This document shows, one piece after another, positions 28,993 through 36,387 of a stretch of 43,607 nt of DNA. The notes beneath the pieces were generated by a model. That model did not search any database and was not told the origin of the DNA. It was given only the letters and a program-made list of their open reading frames with translations. The DNA comes from a virus (lineage: Duplodnaviria > Caudoviricetes). Position 1 is the first letter of the stretch, and every line of letters starts with the position of its first letter. A program made the translations under genes and the position numbers. The stretch spans positions 1 to 43,607 of IMG/VR virus record IMGVR_UViG_3300024051_000006. The stretch is one strand, 5' to 3'.

Positions 28993-29547
28993 ATGGCGAC
29001 CACCACCATCCAGCCCCTGCCGTACCCCGGCCCGCTCGACCCGCCTGCTGGTCCCGCGCAGATCAAGGCGCTCGCCGAGGCGATCGAGGGCCGCACCGTC
29101 ATGCGCTTCGCGACCGCCGCGGCCCGCGACGCCGCGATCCCCAGCGGCGCGCGCGTCGCCGGGATGATGTGCTTCATCGAGGCCGACAACGGTGTTTATG
29201 TCTGGAGCGGGAGCGCATGGGGCGTCGTCTGGCAGGACACGGGTTGGGTGAACATCACGCTCGCGGCGGGGTTCACCGCGCTGTCGCCCGTGCGCGTGCG
29301 ACGCATCGGCCAGGTCGTCCACTGGCGCGGACGCATCGGAGGACCCTGGACGACCTCGTACCAGATCGTCGTGCCACCTGCGAACCTCCCGGCCGGGGTG
29401 CTGATCGGTGGCCTCGGCTGGGCTCTCAACACGGGCTCTCCGACGTTCTCCGCGATTGCTGTCATGGACTCCGGCGGGTTCAAGGTCGCGTGTAACAGCC
29501 CGTCTTCAGGCGTCCACCTCGACGGCATCATGTACCCGGTGAGCTGA
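28993..29547 (+). CDS. Tail fibre / receptor-binding protein, variant A (constant 65 aa plus variable domain A)
   Basis: LPYP, RFATAAARDAAIP..GM constant part; DTGWVNITL...RRIGQVVHWRG fibre C-domain. Confidence 0.8.
   Translation: MATTTIQPLPYPGPLDPPAGPAQIKALAEAIEGRTVMRFATAAARDAAIPSGARVAGMMCFIEADNGVYVWSGSAWGVVWQDTGWVNITLAAGFTALSPVRVRRIGQVVHWRGRIGGPWTTSYQIVVPPANLPAGVLIGGLGWALNTGSPTFSAIAVMDSGGFKVACNSPSSGVHLDGIMYPVS
29179..29206 (+). repeat. Inversion site 1 (dif-like): GAGGCCGACAA-CGGTGT-TTATGTCTGGA
   Basis: 16-bp core 29188-29203 is the exact inverse of 29963-29978. Confidence 0.85.
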
Positions 29548-29976
29548 CCAGTGCGTCAGCTGGCGCGGTAGGAGCCCTCGACGGTGATCGTGTCGCTCGC
29601 GCCCCACGTCCACGGGACGCTCGCGCCCGCGACCGTGCCCGACTCCGAGGTGATCGAGATCGTCGTCCCGGCCCACCGCGACGCATGGAAGGCACGGACC
29701 GCCGACGCGCTCGCGTCGTAGAGCAGCGCGCGGCCGAGAAGTGCTCGCGCCCCAAGGACGCTCGACGACGCAGGCAGCCCCAGGACGACCGTGCCGGTGA
29801 CGGACGACGACGAGCCGAGCACGAGCTCGATCTGGTAGTGGACGACGCCGCCGACGATCGCGTATGCGCCGGCGATCGTGCCGTTGCCGAGGGCGACGCC
29901 CGCGATGGTCGGGATGTACGTCCGCCACGCCGTGTACAGGGCCCGCCACTGCCCCCCGGAGTAGACATAAACACCG
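29190..29976. mobile_element. Invertible tail-fibre cassette
   Basis: Inverted repeats flank two convergent, in-frame alternative 3' gene halves. Confidence 0.85.
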
Positions 29977-29978
29977 TT
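29556..29978 (-). CDS. Silent alternative C-terminal domain B of the tail fibre (fuses in frame after inversion; 205 aa product)
   Basis: NGVYVYSGGQWRALYTAWRTYIPTIAGVALGNGTIAGAY...GSYRAS*; open from the repeat to the stop, no start at its 5' end. Confidence 0.85.
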   Translation of the reverse strand, partial: NGVYVYSGGQWRALYTAWRTYIPTIAGVALGNGTIAGAYAIVGGVVHYQIELVLGSSSSVTGTVVLGLPASSSVLGARALLGRALLYDASASAVRAFHASRWAGTTISITSESGTVAGASVPWTWGASDTITVEGSYRAS

Positions 29979-29987
29979 CTCAGGCTA
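29960..29987 (-). repeat. Inversion site 2 (dif-like): TAGCCTGAGAA-CGGTGT-TTATGTCTACT
   Basis: Same 6-bp spacer and TTATGTCT as site 1, opposite strand. Confidence 0.85.
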
Positions 29988-30080: not shown

Positions 30081-30452
30081 ATGACCTACGACCCCGGCCT
30101 CGGCGCGCTCGAGCACACCCAGCCCAACGCTCGACGCCCGATCGCGGAGGACCCAACCCTCGCCGTCGTCCTGTCCAAGCTCTCGGACCTGCGCGAGGAC
30201 GTCCTCGAGCTGCGCGCCGAGGTCCGCGCGTCCTCCGCCAACGTCGTCGCGCGCGGCGAGTGGCAGCAGCGCAACGCTGCCGTGGACGCGTCTTTCACGG
30301 CGCAGGGCCGCGAGATCGCGCAGCTGCGCACCGACATCGTCCAGGCGCGCACCCTCGCCGAGACCCGCCGCGCCCCCTGGTGGTCCGTCGTCGCAGCGAT
30401 CGGCTCCGTCGTCGCCGTCGCAGCCGTCCTCATCCCCGCCCTCGCCCGCTAG
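30081..30452 (+). CDS. Coiled-coil membrane protein of the lysis cassette
   Basis: Coiled coil plus C-terminal TM; precedes endolysin. Confidence 0.7.
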   Translation: MTYDPGLGALEHTQPNARRPIAEDPTLAVVLSKLSDLREDVLELRAEVRASSANVVARGEWQQRNAAVDASFTAQGREIAQLRTDIVQARTLAETRRAPWWSVVAAIGSVVAVAAVLIPALAR

Positions 30453-30465
30453 GAGGCACCCCCTC

Positions 30466-31329
30466 ATGCAGCAGCAGACCATCGCGCCCGGGCACTGGCT
30501 CGCCCCTGCCCCGGCCGCGTCCTACGCCCGGATGATCCGCGACGGCTGCCCGCCCGGCATCACCTCCGCGGGCCGCACCACCGCGGAGCAGCGCTCGATC
30601 TTCCTGGCCCGCTACCGCCCGCAGGCCACCGGCTCTGGCCCCTACGGCGACGTGGTCACGTGGCAGGGCGTGCGCTACGTGCGCGTGTCGGGCCCCTCGC
30701 CCGCGTCCCCGCCCGGGTCGGTGTGGTCCCTGCACGAGCGCGGCGACGCGATCGACGTGCCCGAGCCCGCCCGCGCCTGGATTCGCACCCACGGCGCGCC
30801 CTACGGCTGGGTCCGAGACACCGTGCCCGGCGAGCCCTGGCACATGGTCTACCAGCCCGACCGTGACACCCGCCCGGGCAGCGTCATCCCGCTGCCGACC
30901 GACCTCCCGGAGGACACCATGCGCCGCATCACCCACACCCGCACGAAGAAGGTCGCGCTCCCGAAGGGCGCGTGGACGACCGCGCCCATCGACGACAAGG
31001 GCAACACGTCCGCGTGCACCGTCGCGGGCCGCGGGCTCGTCGTCGCCGACCTCACCCTCACCGGCGTCCCCAAGGGCAAGGAGGTCCAGGCGCGCGTCAT
31101 CGTCGTCGACACCGACCCCGCCGGCAAGGGAGCCAAGATCGTCTCCCGCGGCCGCATCGTCGAGATCATCGGCACCGGCGGCTCCACGTTCGGCCAGATC
31201 GTCGCGCCCATCGACCTACCCAAGGTCACCGGCACGCGCTCCCGCCGCGCGCGCGTCCAGATCCTCGCCCTCGACGCCGGGGTCACCCTCACCGCCCTGA
31301 CCACCACCACCGACCTCATCCCCGCCTGA
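30466..31329 (+). CDS. Endolysin, M15-type Zn peptidase
   Basis: ITSAGRT..EQ, SLHERGDAID, EPWH motifs. Confidence 0.88.
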   Translation: MQQQTIAPGHWLAPAPAASYARMIRDGCPPGITSAGRTTAEQRSIFLARYRPQATGSGPYGDVVTWQGVRYVRVSGPSPASPPGSVWSLHERGDAIDVPEPARAWIRTHGAPYGWVRDTVPGEPWHMVYQPDRDTRPGSVIPLPTDLPEDTMRRITHTRTKKVALPKGAWTTAPIDDKGNTSACTVAGRGLVVADLTLTGVPKGKEVQARVIVVDTDPAGKGAKIVSRGRIVEIIGTGGSTFGQIVAPIDLPKVTGTRSRRARVQILALDAGVTLTALTTTTDLIPA

Positions 31330-31338
31330 GAGGACACC

Positions 31339-31674
31339 ATGACCCGCACCTGGCTCCACGCCGCCCTCGTCCGCGCCGTGCGCACCGTCGCGCAGACCGC
31401 CGTCGCCCTCATCGGCACCAGCGCCCTCGGCGTCCTCGACGTCGACTGGATCGCCGTCACCTCCGCCTCCGCGCTCGCGGGCATCGTCTCGGTGCTCACG
31501 TCCGTCGCAGGCCTGCCCGAGGCCGCACCGCCCGCCGTCGTCGCCACGGGCATCGCGCCGCCGACGCTCGCCGAGCTCGTCGACCGCGCTGACGAGCGCG
31601 TGGACCCCGCGACCGTCCCCGACCCCGACGAGGACGACGGCGAGGACCCCGACCCGGACCCGACCGATGAGTGA
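31339..31674 (+). CDS. Holin (r1t family)
   Basis: RAVRTVAQTAVALIG...VDW...SVLTSVAGLPE. Confidence 0.92.
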   Translation: MTRTWLHAALVRAVRTVAQTAVALIGTSALGVLDVDWIAVTSASALAGIVSVLTSVAGLPEAAPPAVVATGIAPPTLAELVDRADERVDPATVPDPDEDDGEDPDPDPTDE

Positions 31675-31865: not shown

Positions 31866-32333
31866 TCAGGACTTCCCGTTCCCGTTCTCGCCCTTCGGGA
31901 AGAGGTAGTTCGCGACGATGTACATGAGGCCGATCACCTGGACGACTGTGCTCGTGAACCATGCGATGAGAACGCTAGATTCGATCGGGCTGTCCTCGCG
32001 ATAGCAGTATGCGATGTAGCTCGCCATCAGCGCGCCCGTGGCAACCAGCGTCCAAACCATCGTGCGCTTGATGGTCGTCGCGAACGACTGCCGGAGCGTC
32101 CGGGTCTGGGCGCGGTCGGAGCGATCATGCTTGAGCATCTCGCGCTCATGCTCCTCCATCTGGAGGCGTCGACGCCGCTCGAAGTCATCGTCGAGGCTCT
32201 CGCGAGAACGAGGAACTCTTGCAGCGCTACGCACGGATTCCACCGTCGACCGCAGGGGCACGTCCCTGCCCTTGATCTCATCAAAGAGGGCTCGATCGAG
32301 GTCTCGACGAGTCCGAGGACGCGGATCAGACAT
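31866..32333 (-). CDS. 2-TM membrane protein (accessory)
   Basis: Two C-terminal hydrophobic helices ending VIGLMYIVANYLFP; lower GC. Confidence 0.75.
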   Translation of the reverse strand: MSDPRPRTRRDLDRALFDEIKGRDVPLRSTVESVRSAARVPRSRESLDDDFERRRRLQMEEHEREMLKHDRSDRAQTRTLRQSFATTIKRTMVWTLVATGALMASYIAYCYREDSPIESSVLIAWFTSTVVQVIGLMYIVANYLFPKGENGNGKS

Positions 32334-32808
32334 CGAGCCGTTCGCGGCGCTTCCGCACCGCCGCTGGGCTCACGCCGAACTTCGCGGCGGCCAGGTAGTC
32401 GGAGCCGTGAGCCTTGATATCAGCCCGGAAATGCTTCTCCGGCATCAGCAAGTTGCCCGCGAACTCGTCGGCGTAGAACTCGTGGAGGTCATACTTCCCC
32501 GGGAGCCGCTCCTCGACGAAGGAGTACTCCTCGTCGCCAGCCTGCTTCCGCTCGAAGTAGTGCCCGAGCTCGTGGGCGCAGGTGAAGGTCTGACGTCCGA
32601 AGTTGTCGCTCTCCTCAACGAGGATCGTGATCTCCCCGGCCTGGGCGACGATCGCCCCGGAGAGCTCGGGCCTGAGCGATGCGACGATCACCTTCATGCC
32701 GAGACTGTCTGCGATACCGAACGGGTCGATGGGGAACGTCGAGCCGTCCCAGTGCTCCTTGAGCACGCTCTCGGCCGCGACCTTGGCCGCTTCCTTGACT
32801 AGCATCAT
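32326..32808 (-). CDS. ImmA/IrrE-family metallopeptidase (second copy)
   Basis: PIDPFGIA, RQTFTCAHELGH, EFYADEFAGNLLMP, FGVS..AV..R. Confidence 0.88.
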   Translation of the reverse strand: MMLVKEAAKVAAESVLKEHWDGSTFPIDPFGIADSLGMKVIVASLRPELSGAIVAQAGEITILVEESDNFGRQTFTCAHELGHYFERKQAGDEEYSFVEERLPGKYDLHEFYADEFAGNLLMPEKHFRADIKAHGSDYLAAAKFGVSPAAVRKRRERLDV

Positions 32809-32936
32809 CCACCCCCAATCACCTACCGCCGACGCTACCTGGTAGGTCCATCTTGTGCTATGACCGAACTCACGGCGAGTCCTGGTTGATGCCTCGGCAT
32901 GCTGACACTCGGCCTTGAGCCAGCACGCAATCCTCG

Positions 32937-34028
32937 TCATGCCCGGGGGTACCGCCGCAGCCGCTGGGACACGGTCGCGTGCGGCATGTCCAGGCTCCGC
33001 GCGACCGACGCGACCGTGACCCCGTCGAGCTCGAGCAGCGCCCGCACGCGCGCGCTCCACACCGGCAGGTCCGTCACATCTCCGAGCGAGGCGACCTCCT
33101 CAGGCGTGAGCGGCCGGCCACGCCGCGCAGCGCCGCGCGCTTGTGCGGCGGCGACCTGCTGCGGCGACCAGCGCGCACCCCGCGACGCCTCCGTAGCCGC
33201 GGCAGGGTCGCGGTGCTCGGCGAGCACGGCCGCATGCTCGTCACGATGCCGCTCCCACGCGGCGCTCATCCGCGCACGGGTCGTCTCCCCGACGAGCGCG
33301 AGACCGGGCGCGAGGCCGTGCCGCTCGCGGTACTCGCTCGCGGTGACGCCGTGGACGCGCACGTGCGTCGCCAGGTGCTCCAGCGCCCGCCCGCACTCGT
33401 GGCAGATGACGCGACCGTCGTCGTCGCGCTCGAGCATCCCGTAGCGGCCGTGCCCGTCCACGCTGCCGTAGGCCGGACGGGCCCGGGCCTCCTCGCGCAG
33501 CCGCTGCCGTCGCCTCGCCTGGTAGTGGGGCCAGCACATCTCCCGCGTCGCGTCCGGCGCGCGCTCGCAGCCGGCGACCGAGCACGTCTCGGGCCGCGGC
33601 TGCCGCAGGCGCGGCACGGCGGGCACCGGCCGCGGGATGCGCACGGCACGCGGCGGTGGCGGCGCGGGGATCACCGGCCTGCCGCTGATGACGCGGCTGT
33701 AGTGCAGGGAGCACCAGCCGCGCGCACGATGAGGACGCCCGCACCCATCGAGCATGCACACCGGGCCGCGCTCCGCGCGCGGGACGACCGGCGCAGACAG
33801 CGCCGCACCGTCCGCACCCAGACGCGCGCGCTCGTAGTGCCGCGGGCACATGCCACGCGCGACCGCGTCGACCTCGCACCCGTCCACGGAGCACGTCGCG
33901 ACCGGGCGCGCGTCGACGGGCGCAGCCATGTCCGACCCGCGCCGCCACCGCGTGTAGTGCGCCACGCACCAGCCGCGCGCCAGGACCGGCCGACCGCAGC
34001 CCTCGACGCTGCAGGTGCGGGCGGTCAT
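32937..34028 (-). CDS. Multi-Zn-finger protein with MucR/Ros-like domain and C-terminal HTH
   Basis: 4x C(S/M)xxGC...CxxHY repeats; ICHECG...LATHVRVHGVTASEYRERHGL; VASVARSLDMPHATVSQRL. Confidence 0.7.
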   Translation of the reverse strand: MTARTCSVEGCGRPVLARGWCVAHYTRWRRGSDMAAPVDARPVATCSVDGCEVDAVARGMCPRHYERARLGADGAALSAPVVPRAERGPVCMLDGCGRPHRARGWCSLHYSRVISGRPVIPAPPPPRAVRIPRPVPAVPRLRQPRPETCSVAGCERAPDATREMCWPHYQARRRQRLREEARARPAYGSVDGHGRYGMLERDDDGRVICHECGRALEHLATHVRVHGVTASEYRERHGLAPGLALVGETTRARMSAAWERHRDEHAAVLAEHRDPAAATEASRGARWSPQQVAAAQARGAARRGRPLTPEEVASLGDVTDLPVWSARVRALLELDGVTVASVARSLDMPHATVSQRLRRYPRA

Positions 34029-34396: not shown

Positions 34397-34777
34397 TCAG
34401 GCGTAGAGGGCGTCGTAGGTGGCGTTGACGAGCTCGTAGAAGTCGTCGCCGACGACCGTGGTGCCGATGACGGCGGTGGGGTGGACGAGGACGGCTCCGA
34501 CCGCGGCGTCGTGGTCCTCGTCGTCAGCGAGGTCGGCCTCGATCTCGACGATGACCGACTCGTCGGCGACCGGGACGCCGGCCTGGGCGATGTACGCGGC
34601 GAGCTCCTCGACGGACTCGCAGACGGAGACGCCGTGGCGGACGTCCTCGACCTCCTCGCCGTTCTCGAGGGTGATGTACTTCTCGCCGCCGTGGTTGCGG
34701 GAGTTCCAGCGGGTCGGGTCCAGGAGCGCCGCGGTGTCGCGGTCGGCGGGCTGGATGCGGAAGTATCGGCTGCTCAT
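34397..34777 (-). CDS. Hypothetical acidic protein (possible toxin)
   Basis: Leaderless ATG; YFRIQ...HGVSVCES...VIVEIEAD. Confidence 0.65.
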   Translation of the reverse strand: MSSRYFRIQPADRDTAALLDPTRWNSRNHGGEKYITLENGEEVEDVRHGVSVCESVEELAAYIAQAGVPVADESVIVEIEADLADDEDHDAAVGAVLVHPTAVIGTTVVGDDFYELVNATYDALYA

Positions 34778-34815
34778 GTAGAACACTCTACATGCCTTCT
34801 GTAGTTCTGTCTACA
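34777..34815 (-). promoter_or_regulatory. SigA-type leaderless promoter with two palindromic operators
   Basis: TAGACA-17-TAGAGT-7-ATG; TGTAG-N6-CTACA at 34777-34792 and 34800-34815. Confidence 0.75.
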
Positions 34816-34860: not shown

Positions 34861-36111
34861 CTACTCCCCTCCGTCGAGCGCGAGCCTCTCCCCCAGCCGC
34901 GCCATGGCGTCCCGTCCGAGCGCCGTCGAGACATGCGTGTAGCCAGCCGTGACCGCGGCCGAGTTGTGCCCCATGATCGCCATGCGCGTCCGCTCGTCCA
35001 CGCCGAGTTCGAGCAGCAGCGTCGCCGTGGTGTGGCGCGCCGAGTGCAGCGGCGCGTCAGGCAGCCCGGCCCGCCTGAGTGCCGCGTCCCACGCTGCAGC
35101 GTCGTCGCGCGGGTCGATCGGGTGCCCGTCGCCACGATGGAAGATCAGGCCAGCGTCACCCGGCGTCGCGACCTCGAGGTGCCGCTCGATGACCTCGGCG
35201 AGCAGCGGGGCCATGGGCACCTCACGCCACCCGGCGCGCGACTTCGGGCGCGTCATCCAGAGTCCGCCGTAGACCTGTCGCGCCTCTTGGTCGGACGGGA
35301 TGCGCACGTGGCGGTCCGGGCAGTAGCCGGCGCGCGTGTACTCGCACGGCCACCCGCCGGTCGGCTTCTCGTCGGCACACCCGTGCTCCCACCGTAGGCG
35401 CTGGATCTGCCACGAGACCGTGATGACACCGGCGTCGAGGTCGACCGCGTCGCGCGTGATGCCGAGCCTCTCGCCCTGCCGCATGCCCGTGAGCAGCGCG
35501 ACGGACCAGTGCGGGGCCTCGTCGGGGTTCGTCGCGACGCTCCGGAGCAGCGTGACCGCCTGGTCGGCCGTGAGCGCGGCGCGCGTGCTGACGGCGCGGC
35601 GTGGCGCGTCGAGGAGCGTCGCCACGTTGCGCGTGACGCGACCCTCGCGCTCGGCGTCAGTGAGTGCCTTGGCGAGGATGCGGTGCGCCTGCAACGCGGT
35701 CGTCGTCGAGCGACCCGCGCGGAGGATCGCGTCGTGCACCTCCCGGACGTGCGCGGGCGTGAGGCGGTCGAGCCGACGCGTGCCGATGGTGGGGACGATC
35801 CACGTGTTGACGTACCCCTGATAGGTCGCGAGCGTCCTCGGCTTGAGGCGCGGGCGAGCGATGGTCTCGAGCCATAGGTTCATCCACGTCGCGACCGTGG
35901 GGCTCGACGTCGGCAGATCGCCCGCGCGGTCGAGCTCGCGTCGCATGTCGGCGAGGAGGCGCGACGCCCCGGCCTTCGTCTTGTGCGTCTTGACCTTCCG
36001 ACGTCGCTTGCCGTCACGGTCGGGCAGCGTGATGGACGCGACCCACATGCCGTCGCTGGTCCGCTGGTAGAGCGACCCTGCGTGGGCGTCCCGTCGTGCC
36101 GTGCGTGCCAT
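34861..36111 (-). CDS. int: Tyrosine integrase
   Basis: GSLYQR N-terminal arm-binding domain; GMRQGE, PKS, HSARH, MGH, GYTH catalytic residues. Confidence 0.95.
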   Translation of the reverse strand: MARTARRDAHAGSLYQRTSDGMWVASITLPDRDGKRRRKVKTHKTKAGASRLLADMRRELDRAGDLPTSSPTVATWMNLWLETIARPRLKPRTLATYQGYVNTWIVPTIGTRRLDRLTPAHVREVHDAILRAGRSTTTALQAHRILAKALTDAEREGRVTRNVATLLDAPRRAVSTRAALTADQAVTLLRSVATNPDEAPHWSVALLTGMRQGERLGITRDAVDLDAGVITVSWQIQRLRWEHGCADEKPTGGWPCEYTRAGYCPDRHVRIPSDQEARQVYGGLWMTRPKSRAGWREVPMAPLLAEVIERHLEVATPGDAGLIFHRGDGHPIDPRDDAAAWDAALRRAGLPDAPLHSARHTTATLLLELGVDERTRMAIMGHNSAAVTAGYTHVSTALGRDAMARLGERLALDGGE

Positions 36112-36130
36112 GGTGCACCTCCCTGCCCCT

Positions 36131-36384
36131 ACTGTAGCCACGACTGTAGCCACGCACCCGCGCGCACATGCGCGCACCCGCTTGTCAAGAATGGCAGAAT
36201 CTCGCGGCTTCCGAGGCCCTTCCGCCCCCCTCAGACTACCCGACCGTCAGACTCATAATCCGTCGGTCCTGGGTTCAAGCCCCAGATGCCTCACGCAGAA
36301 TCCCGCCGATCCTGACGGGCCGAGCGGCGGGCACTGTAGCCACACCTTTAGCCAAGGCCGAAAATCGCTGCTCGGCTGTAGCCA
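36131..36384 (+). other. attP: attP: arm-type repeats (A)CTGTAGCCA flanking a tRNA(CAT) 3'-half core at 36250-36284
   Basis: Repeats at 36131, 36143, 36333, 36345 (degenerate), 36375; core GACTCATAATCCGTCGGTCCTGGGTTCAAGCCCCA spans anticodon loop to T arm. Confidence 0.88.
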
Positions 36385-36387
36385 CAA

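Follow-up and report, generated by a model that had tools for sequence, protein, structure and literature searches.

In the Gin, Cin and Min systems, a phage-encoded serine invertase leaves a constant N-terminus fused to alternative C-terminal receptor-binding parts. Other phages rely on recombinases of the host, and IMEX phages such as CTXphi integrate at the host dif site through host Xer and a dif-like site of their own. The core sites of tyrosine recombinases generally have an arm-spacer-arm form; within the Xer pair, XerD binds more strongly and recruits XerC, which would make a weak XerC arm tolerable.

Mu Gin/gix, P1 Cin/cix and p15B Min are the tail-fibre inversion systems named alongside the Rin shufflon of Bifidobacterium prophages, a phage-encoded tyrosine invertase system whose invertase gene lies adjacent to the cassettes, of which there are several, and whose rix site is 11 bp long (Mavrich 2018, PMC6109161). 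In prophages Bb423phi2/689b-1 a second inversion lacks an invertase, and the available part of the same paper proposes action in trans with no mention of Xer or dif (PMC6109161). Tail-gene inversions have also been noted in bifidobacterial prophages, with no mechanism given in the available part of that report (PMC8705816). On Acinetobacter plasmids, XerC/D reversibly inverts DNA lying between opposed, spacer-matched pdif sites (PMC9947245). By title or abstract, we found no report of an Xer-driven or dif-like phage tail inversion in a literature search that left most subscription papers outside its scope.

Here we describe a locus at the end of the tail genes of a 43,607-nucleotide viral genome (hereafter the window, meaning the whole stretch of DNA analyzed). 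From sequence comparison and structure prediction, we consider it probable that the locus is a two-state tail-tip switch, likely inverted by host XerC/XerD.

Results

The phage genome

The window is a temperate siphophage-type genome of 71.7% GC, encoding WhiB, portal, capsid, tape measure, holin and a tyrosine integrase, together with a RecT-like gene. It is colinear with a 43-kb prophage of Sanguibacter massiliensis (genome G001, reached via locus L082), circularly permuted and at 69-89% identity. Because both of its ends abut in the order of that prophage and its attP is intact, the window appears near-complete, despite a CheckV estimate of 54% for the record. The attP core is duplicated at both ends of the prophage, with tRNA-Met at the matching host sites, and the intact attP, with its tRNA-Met core and four arm repeats, marks the contig as the excised form. 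Three features provide context:

31339-31674, plus strand: holin (PF16945, E = 5.7e-17), marking the lysis cassette (30081-31674) that follows the switch
34861-36177, minus strand: tyrosine integrase with an N-terminal SAM-like domain (PF00589, PF14659), the rival candidate enzyme
36132-36385, plus strand: integrase attP, with a tRNA-Met-derived core at about 36250-36290 and four exact 10-bp arm-type repeats

Beyond the lysis cassette, a minus-strand insert of two genes (31866-33060) encodes a metallopeptidase of the IrrE/ImmA type (PF06114) and what may be a membrane protein; it is locally AT-richer and may be an accessory module. A leftward gene block is immediately preceded by two AT-rich imperfect palindromes of operator-like appearance (34774-34815), which also lie downstream of the integrase. 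A search for promoter and terminator consensus sequences between 28700 and 30500 found none.

An inverted repeat joins an expressed head to a silent one

The tail locus consists of the following elements:

28993-29547, plus strand: expressed tail receptor-binding protein gene, an ORF of 184 aa with a constant N-terminus (about 65 aa) and head A
29179-29206, plus strand: dif-like site 1, inside the tail gene (XerC-type arm 29179-29189, spacer 29190-29195, XerD-type arm 29196-29206)
29190-29976, unstranded: predicted invertible segment, 787 bp from spacer to spacer, with heads A and B tail to tail
29556-29978, minus strand: silent, start-less cassette of 140 codons for head B, recognized by its open frame, GC3 of 0.91 and predicted structure
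29960-29987, minus strand: dif-like site 2 (XerC-type arm 29987-29977, degenerate and non-coding; spacer 29976-29971; XerD-type arm 29970-29960)

An earlier note, made from the sequence alone, had drawn attention to a 16-mer that occurs at 29188-29203 (plus strand) and again, inverted, at 29963-29978 (minus strand). Both copies are there, and no third turns up in the window even when 3 mismatches are allowed (mean expected by chance 0.04; two copies in 0 of 100 shuffles). With 10 A/T positions, against at most 6 in the others, the pair is the most AT-rich of the window's 19 perfect inverted 16-mer pairs; when the 1.09-kb region was shuffled, a perfect 16-nt inverted repeat of any kind appeared in 28 of 1000 cases. 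The note's start-less minus-strand frame (29556-29978), open for 140 codons, and its alternative products on a common 65-aa N-terminus, 184 aa with head A and 205 aa with head B, are likewise as described; the frame also has an in-frame stop just upstream. With a GC3 of 0.91, against 0.83 for cassette A, cassette B resembles coding DNA.

Structure prediction for the two heads, which the note had proposed, gave models that both resemble receptor-binding heads. The AF2 model of head A (mean pLDDT 83.6) matched the lactococcal bIL170 RBP head 2fsd first in Foldseek (E = 1.2e-4) and Listeria PSA gp15 (6r5w) next. Head B (pLDDT 96.7) had no Foldseek match at E<=0.001; VIA-align paired it with a tailspike C-terminal domain (6f7k; Z 10.0, rmsd 2.9, 116 aligned) and a giant-virus protein (Z 9.9) and, at Z under 8, which is weak by itself, with the PSA gp15 RBP 6r5w (Z 7.3) and the bIL170 head 2fsd (Z 6.9). 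As modeled, both cassettes fold like viral receptor-binding heads, a fold that alone is no proof of receptor binding. Head B had been called a second, unrelated fibre-type domain; the fibre-head fold stands, and the lack of relationship does not. BLASTP aligns heads A and B over their first 15 aa only, yet both match phrog_16452 and belong to the same class of receptor-binding head folds, and hence are not unrelated.

The protein family is alike over about 76 N-terminal residues, after which the C-termini diverge (23 proteins aligned out of 24 homologues, omitting P0024, a short and weak match). Head B is 35-39% identical to four B-type proteins, three of them full-length (P0012, P0017 and P0021). 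In these three a B-type C-terminus is joined to a window-type N-terminus, so the predicted alternative product occurs in nature. Many further proteins of 200-220 aa match the entire profile in a profile search; tblastn with head A or head B gave no match in cultured phages.

The repeats are dif-like

Each repeat, once extended to 28 bp, comprises an 11-nt arm, a 6-nt spacer and a second 11-nt arm; the 16-mer covers the final two bases of the XerC arm (AA), the whole spacer and eight of the XerD-arm bases. The two spacers are the same 6 nt on opposite strands, with XerC-type arms outside the 787-bp segment and XerD-type arms inside it. Arm bases equal to those of the host-type dif of L138 number 17 of 22 in site 1 and 12 of 22 in site 2, whose XerC arm (5 of 11) is the weakest of eight aligned systems. 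The XerD arms of both sites retain 7 conserved bases by way of codons used at 3-7% in the genome, and each of the window's two arm deviations is found singly in relatives. Judged by their sequence, the two sites look like an Xer recombination pair (11-6-11 in form, opposed and spacer-identical), with a weak XerC arm in site 2.

A pattern derived from the phage sites has exactly one intergenic match in the Sanguibacter massiliensis genome, and this site has the form of the actinobacterial dif predicted by Kono et al. 2011 (PMC3025954), a study according to which no actinobacterial dif had experimental confirmation. The equivalent site in G069 lies at 1.669 Mb in a total of 3.352 Mb, close to the half-way point, and a looser pattern matches in 107 of the 121 genomes of the same family as G001, many of the genomes listed having a single canonical copy. 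We built a dif matrix from the arms of 18 host sites, omitting L165 and L167, whose genomes hold another canonical site; it is partly circular, as its training sites were first found through the phage-derived pattern. Over all window positions it ranks site 1 first (18.4 bits) and site 2 second (9.4), followed by a position at 4.9; host dif sites score 32-44.5 bits, well above both. The repeat copies of three relatives (L083, L084 and L087) likewise rank first and second.

In addition to the chromosomal dif, several loci (L170-L175 and L177, in G110, G057, G114, G027 and G065) carry dif-like sites that score highly but have non-canonical spacers, G110 having three; these are possible pdif modules or dif-integrating elements of this family. 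In G001 a tyrosine recombinase gene (C1:748945-749487), about 1.8 kb from the chromosomal dif, possibly belongs to an element integrated there.

The peptide x-A-D-N-x-x-Y is common in the tail-protein family and by itself yields scores of up to 19.7 in lower-GC phages that have no second cassette. When this peptide was held fixed and codons were drawn at window usage, the expressed sites scored above expectation in the window (p = 0.0023), L083 (0.0029), L084 (0.0020) and L087 (0.0066); the values were 0.0008 for single-cassette L001 and 0.08 for L169. Of 7 conserved XerC-arm bases, the silent site's outer arm, which is non-coding, keeps 6-7 in seven other two-site systems and 5 in the window. 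Copy-to-copy identity in those seven fades at about the outer edge of the XerC-arm motif. We infer, as the likeliest history, that a hinge peptide already near dif in sequence was then tuned into a working site.

Relatives with the same layout

We looked for an inverted copy of the junction core at the 96 homologue loci whose sequence continues for at least 1.2 kb downstream. It was present in the window record, L083, L084, L087 and one chance pair; the inverted match of L033/L034, whose partner scored -19, was rejected as chance. A search of 401 genomes found the gene in six and added a fourth two-site relative in G248 (L643). Heads differ from locus to locus, with the expressed head of L087 and the silent head of L084 starting with the same 11 residues, and lysis genes follow the switch in L084 and L087, the loci with annotated next genes. 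The two spacers of L083 differ by one base. Repeat length is 55-61 nt or more in L083 and L087 and only 16-21 nt in the window, L084 and the cultured phage BP677P2. At L087:6185-6868 the cassettes are paralogous and look as though one had recently been copied from the other; they share a perfect inverted repeat of 61 nt and additional shorter arms.

Locked derivatives also occur: L001 has a single cassette, as does L169, where a short piece of the 3' end of a second one survives in inverted form. In these two prophage-like regions of G069 (L001:6187-6576 and L169:6040-6435) the N-termini are unrelated and one head is held in common. Their DNA similarity starts at the dif-like site, suggesting that heads were exchanged between phages at that point.

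Both orientations in Bifidobacterium phages

Viral contigs were scanned for exact dif (123 loci of about 880 stretches, and 119 of about 440 for a second pattern, with flanks taken for the best 80 of each). Opposed, spacer-matched pairs lay in the last tail gene, followed by lysis genes, in two phage groups of about 54% GC, of which the first matches 8 cultured Bifidobacterium phages and the second had no cultured-phage match. Among the matches listed, converging pairs were confined to Bifidobacterium-type phages, save one low-scoring chance partner in L523. The exact actinobacterial-type dif core itself is present in about 880 viral-contig stretches, among the matches listed mostly as single sites over a wide GC range, and some of these may be dimer-resolution or integration sites. 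The 8-bp repeat of Bb423phi2/689b-1 was also sought in a dif context; it gave no pair among 120 loci listed (23 of 64 parts) or in the best 80 of 119 loci (31 of 64 parts), sets that did not include the Bb423phi2/689b-1 locus.

For the first group, orientation was typed in 40 records, comprising 38 contigs and 2 cultured genomes (L434 was omitted for its unrelated context). Both cassettes could be typed in 24: X/Y in 9, Y/X in 7, Z/X in 5 and X/Z in 3. The orientations stand at 12 against 12, a count over different genomes, in a lineage other than that of the window, and not within one clone. In the best 12 pairs of opposite state, identity is 92-94% once one segment is reverse complemented, against 54-60% in direct comparison. 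In three of the 38 contigs a site lies no more than about 30 nt from the contig end, which hints weakly that the sample contained both orientations. In L445, L450 and L459 the silent site abuts foreign or truncated sequence, possibly through Xer recombination with other dif-like partners or through misassembly.

The sites of cultured BP677P2 score 35.5 and 33.0 bits, within the host range. None of its 46 CDS has an integrase or resolvase Pfam match, though it does encode a YqaJ exonuclease and an ERF annealing protein. In BA720P3 the other head is fused, the site has decayed and the second cassette is absent.

Candidate recombinases and the orientation of the window copy

The earlier note had remarked on the absence of an adjacent invertase and had recognized the integrase as the only site-specific recombinase. 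This holds: no serine resolvase/invertase (PF00239) was found in the window, and its sole site-specific recombinase and sole PF00589 gene is the integrase, 4.9 kb from the switch. No arm-type repeats of attP lie near the tail switch. L002, whose integrase is 91% identical to that of the window, nevertheless lacks a dif-like site and has one cassette. On the G248 contig the recombinases are all of the serine type, one of them encoded about 6 kb from the switch. L083 has a 309-aa tyrosine recombinase 2.9 kb from the switch, beside a host primase gene; this enzyme is probably its integrase. The dif-like sites thus persist while the phage recombinase varies from tyrosine (window) to serine (G248) to none (BP677P2). 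XerD/XerC-like genes were present in all four host-type genomes tested, above the curated XerD cut-off in one.

A single sequencing run held window DNA (contigs only, depth about 12), and it is probably the source sample. It contained one unbroken contig in the window's orientation and no inverted joint, at a depth too shallow to show the absence of a minor orientation. Two joints listed in that run have sides of less than 30 nt that look like other organisms, and neither changes strand. On these contigs, the junction check that the earlier note had proposed for raw reads returned one orientation. The note had also proposed a look for relatives fixed the other way round: both orientations occur in the analogous Bifidobacterium group, whereas among head-B viral loci a site pair was found in 0 of 31, and no close relative was found with the window's two cassettes reversed. 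With site 2 degenerate and a single orientation in contigs, the window copy may be slow or locked.

Discussion

The earlier note's central claim, a two-way receptor-binding switch driven in trans, fits all the tests above, namely the head folds, the B-type relatives, the recurring layout and the two orientations in the analogous Bifidobacterium group. What that reading missed is the dif-like form of the sites, which points to host XerC/XerD as the likely driver and away from both the phage integrase and a serine invertase of the Gin/Cin type. In the mechanism we propose, a constant N-terminus would carry one of two predicted heads while the silent head is held in the inverted cassette. XerC would bind the outer arms and XerD the inner arms, and strand exchange in the 6-nt spacers would invert the 787-bp segment, swapping the head on the constant N-terminus. 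Virions would then bear head A or head B, which may recognize different cell-wall receptors. The phage spacer differs from that of the host dif, which would keep the phage from recombining into the chromosome terminus.

Three other readings deserve weight. The locus may have arisen as an Xer-driven switch that is now locked or nearly so, with head A always made and head B a silent spare. The degenerate XerC arm of site 2, the one orientation in the sequencing run and the frequency of locked derivatives (BA720P3, L001, L169) would all fit this, yet the spacers are identical, the XerD arms keep their 7 conserved bases through codons used at only 3-7%, cassette B is intact with its GC3 of 0.91, each arm deviation is seen singly in relatives, and the run is shallow and made up of contigs; we regard a locked copy as unlikely. 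Somewhat less likely still is inversion in trans by the phage's own tyrosine integrase or by another non-Xer host recombinase. The window does encode such an integrase, L083 has one near its switch, the arm-spacer-arm form is general to tyrosine recombinases, and Rin demonstrates that phage-encoded tyrosine invertases exist (PMC6109161). The integrase as driver is weakened, however, by its own tRNA-Met attP with arm repeats that do not recur at the switch, by the site-less, single-cassette L002 with its 91% identical enzyme, by BP677P2, which has no such enzyme, and by arms that match dif specifically.

Finally, the likeness to dif could be a by-product of a conserved peptide and a past duplication, in which case any exchange would be rare homologous recombination between short repeats. 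The scores that the peptide yields in homologues without a second cassette, the long common repeats of L083 and L087 and the RecT-like gene of the window lean that way. Against this stand the codon-null p values of 0.002-0.007, the conservation of non-coding arms at silent sites, the repeats of only 16-21 nt in the window, L084 and BP677P2, and the near-perfect dif of the Bifidobacterium phages, which together make passive repeats very improbable. Inversion by host XerC/XerD thus remains our preferred reading.

More broadly, we lean, if only slightly, towards the view that distant actinobacterial tailed phages have repeatedly written host dif into the hinge codons of a receptor-binding protein, so that the host's chromosome-segregation recombinase would serve both as invertase and as a swapper of heads between phages. 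If true, host-range switches would include an invertase-free class that escapes searches for recombinase genes, and in which inversion would change which cells the virus binds. Gin, Cin, Min and Rin bring their own invertase, and the invertase-less case is left without an enzyme in the available part of its description (PMC6109161); a dif mimic names one, directly testable in cultured Bifidobacterium phages. The dif-like pair offers a DNA signature for finding such switches, would add the phase variation of a virion protein to the known ways of exploiting Xer, integration and plasmid shuffling, and may help to explain the uneven plaquing and host range of gut bifidophages.

Among known systems, Gin, Cin and Min resemble the locus in their constant and variable tail parts, inverted crossover sites and crossover within a reading frame; they differ in their phage-encoded serine invertase, none having been found in the window, where the sites are of dif form. 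IMEX phages exploit host Xer through a dif-like site, as we propose for the window phage, which unlike them integrates at tRNA-Met by its own integrase and has two sites with a spacer unlike that of host dif. Rin, as far as its available description goes, is likewise an actinobacterial phage system with RBP-head C-terminal cassettes and tyrosine-recombinase chemistry, whereas the window has two cassettes, no adjacent arm-less tyrosine invertase and 28-bp dif-like sites. The Bb423phi2/689b-1 inversion is similarly two-state, about 500 bp long, placed among structural genes and without a flanking recombinase; it has an 8-bp repeat, and neither its enzyme nor the gene function is named in the available part of the paper (PMC6109161). 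Acinetobacter pdif modules share opposed sites, identical spacers, host XerC/D and the lack of an element-encoded recombinase; those described in the available part of that work are plasmid modules with intergenic sites, whereas here a phage gene contains one of the sites and a protein would be reassembled by recombination (PMC9947245). The locus would work like a Gin/Rin-type receptor switch, yet is a member of neither family.
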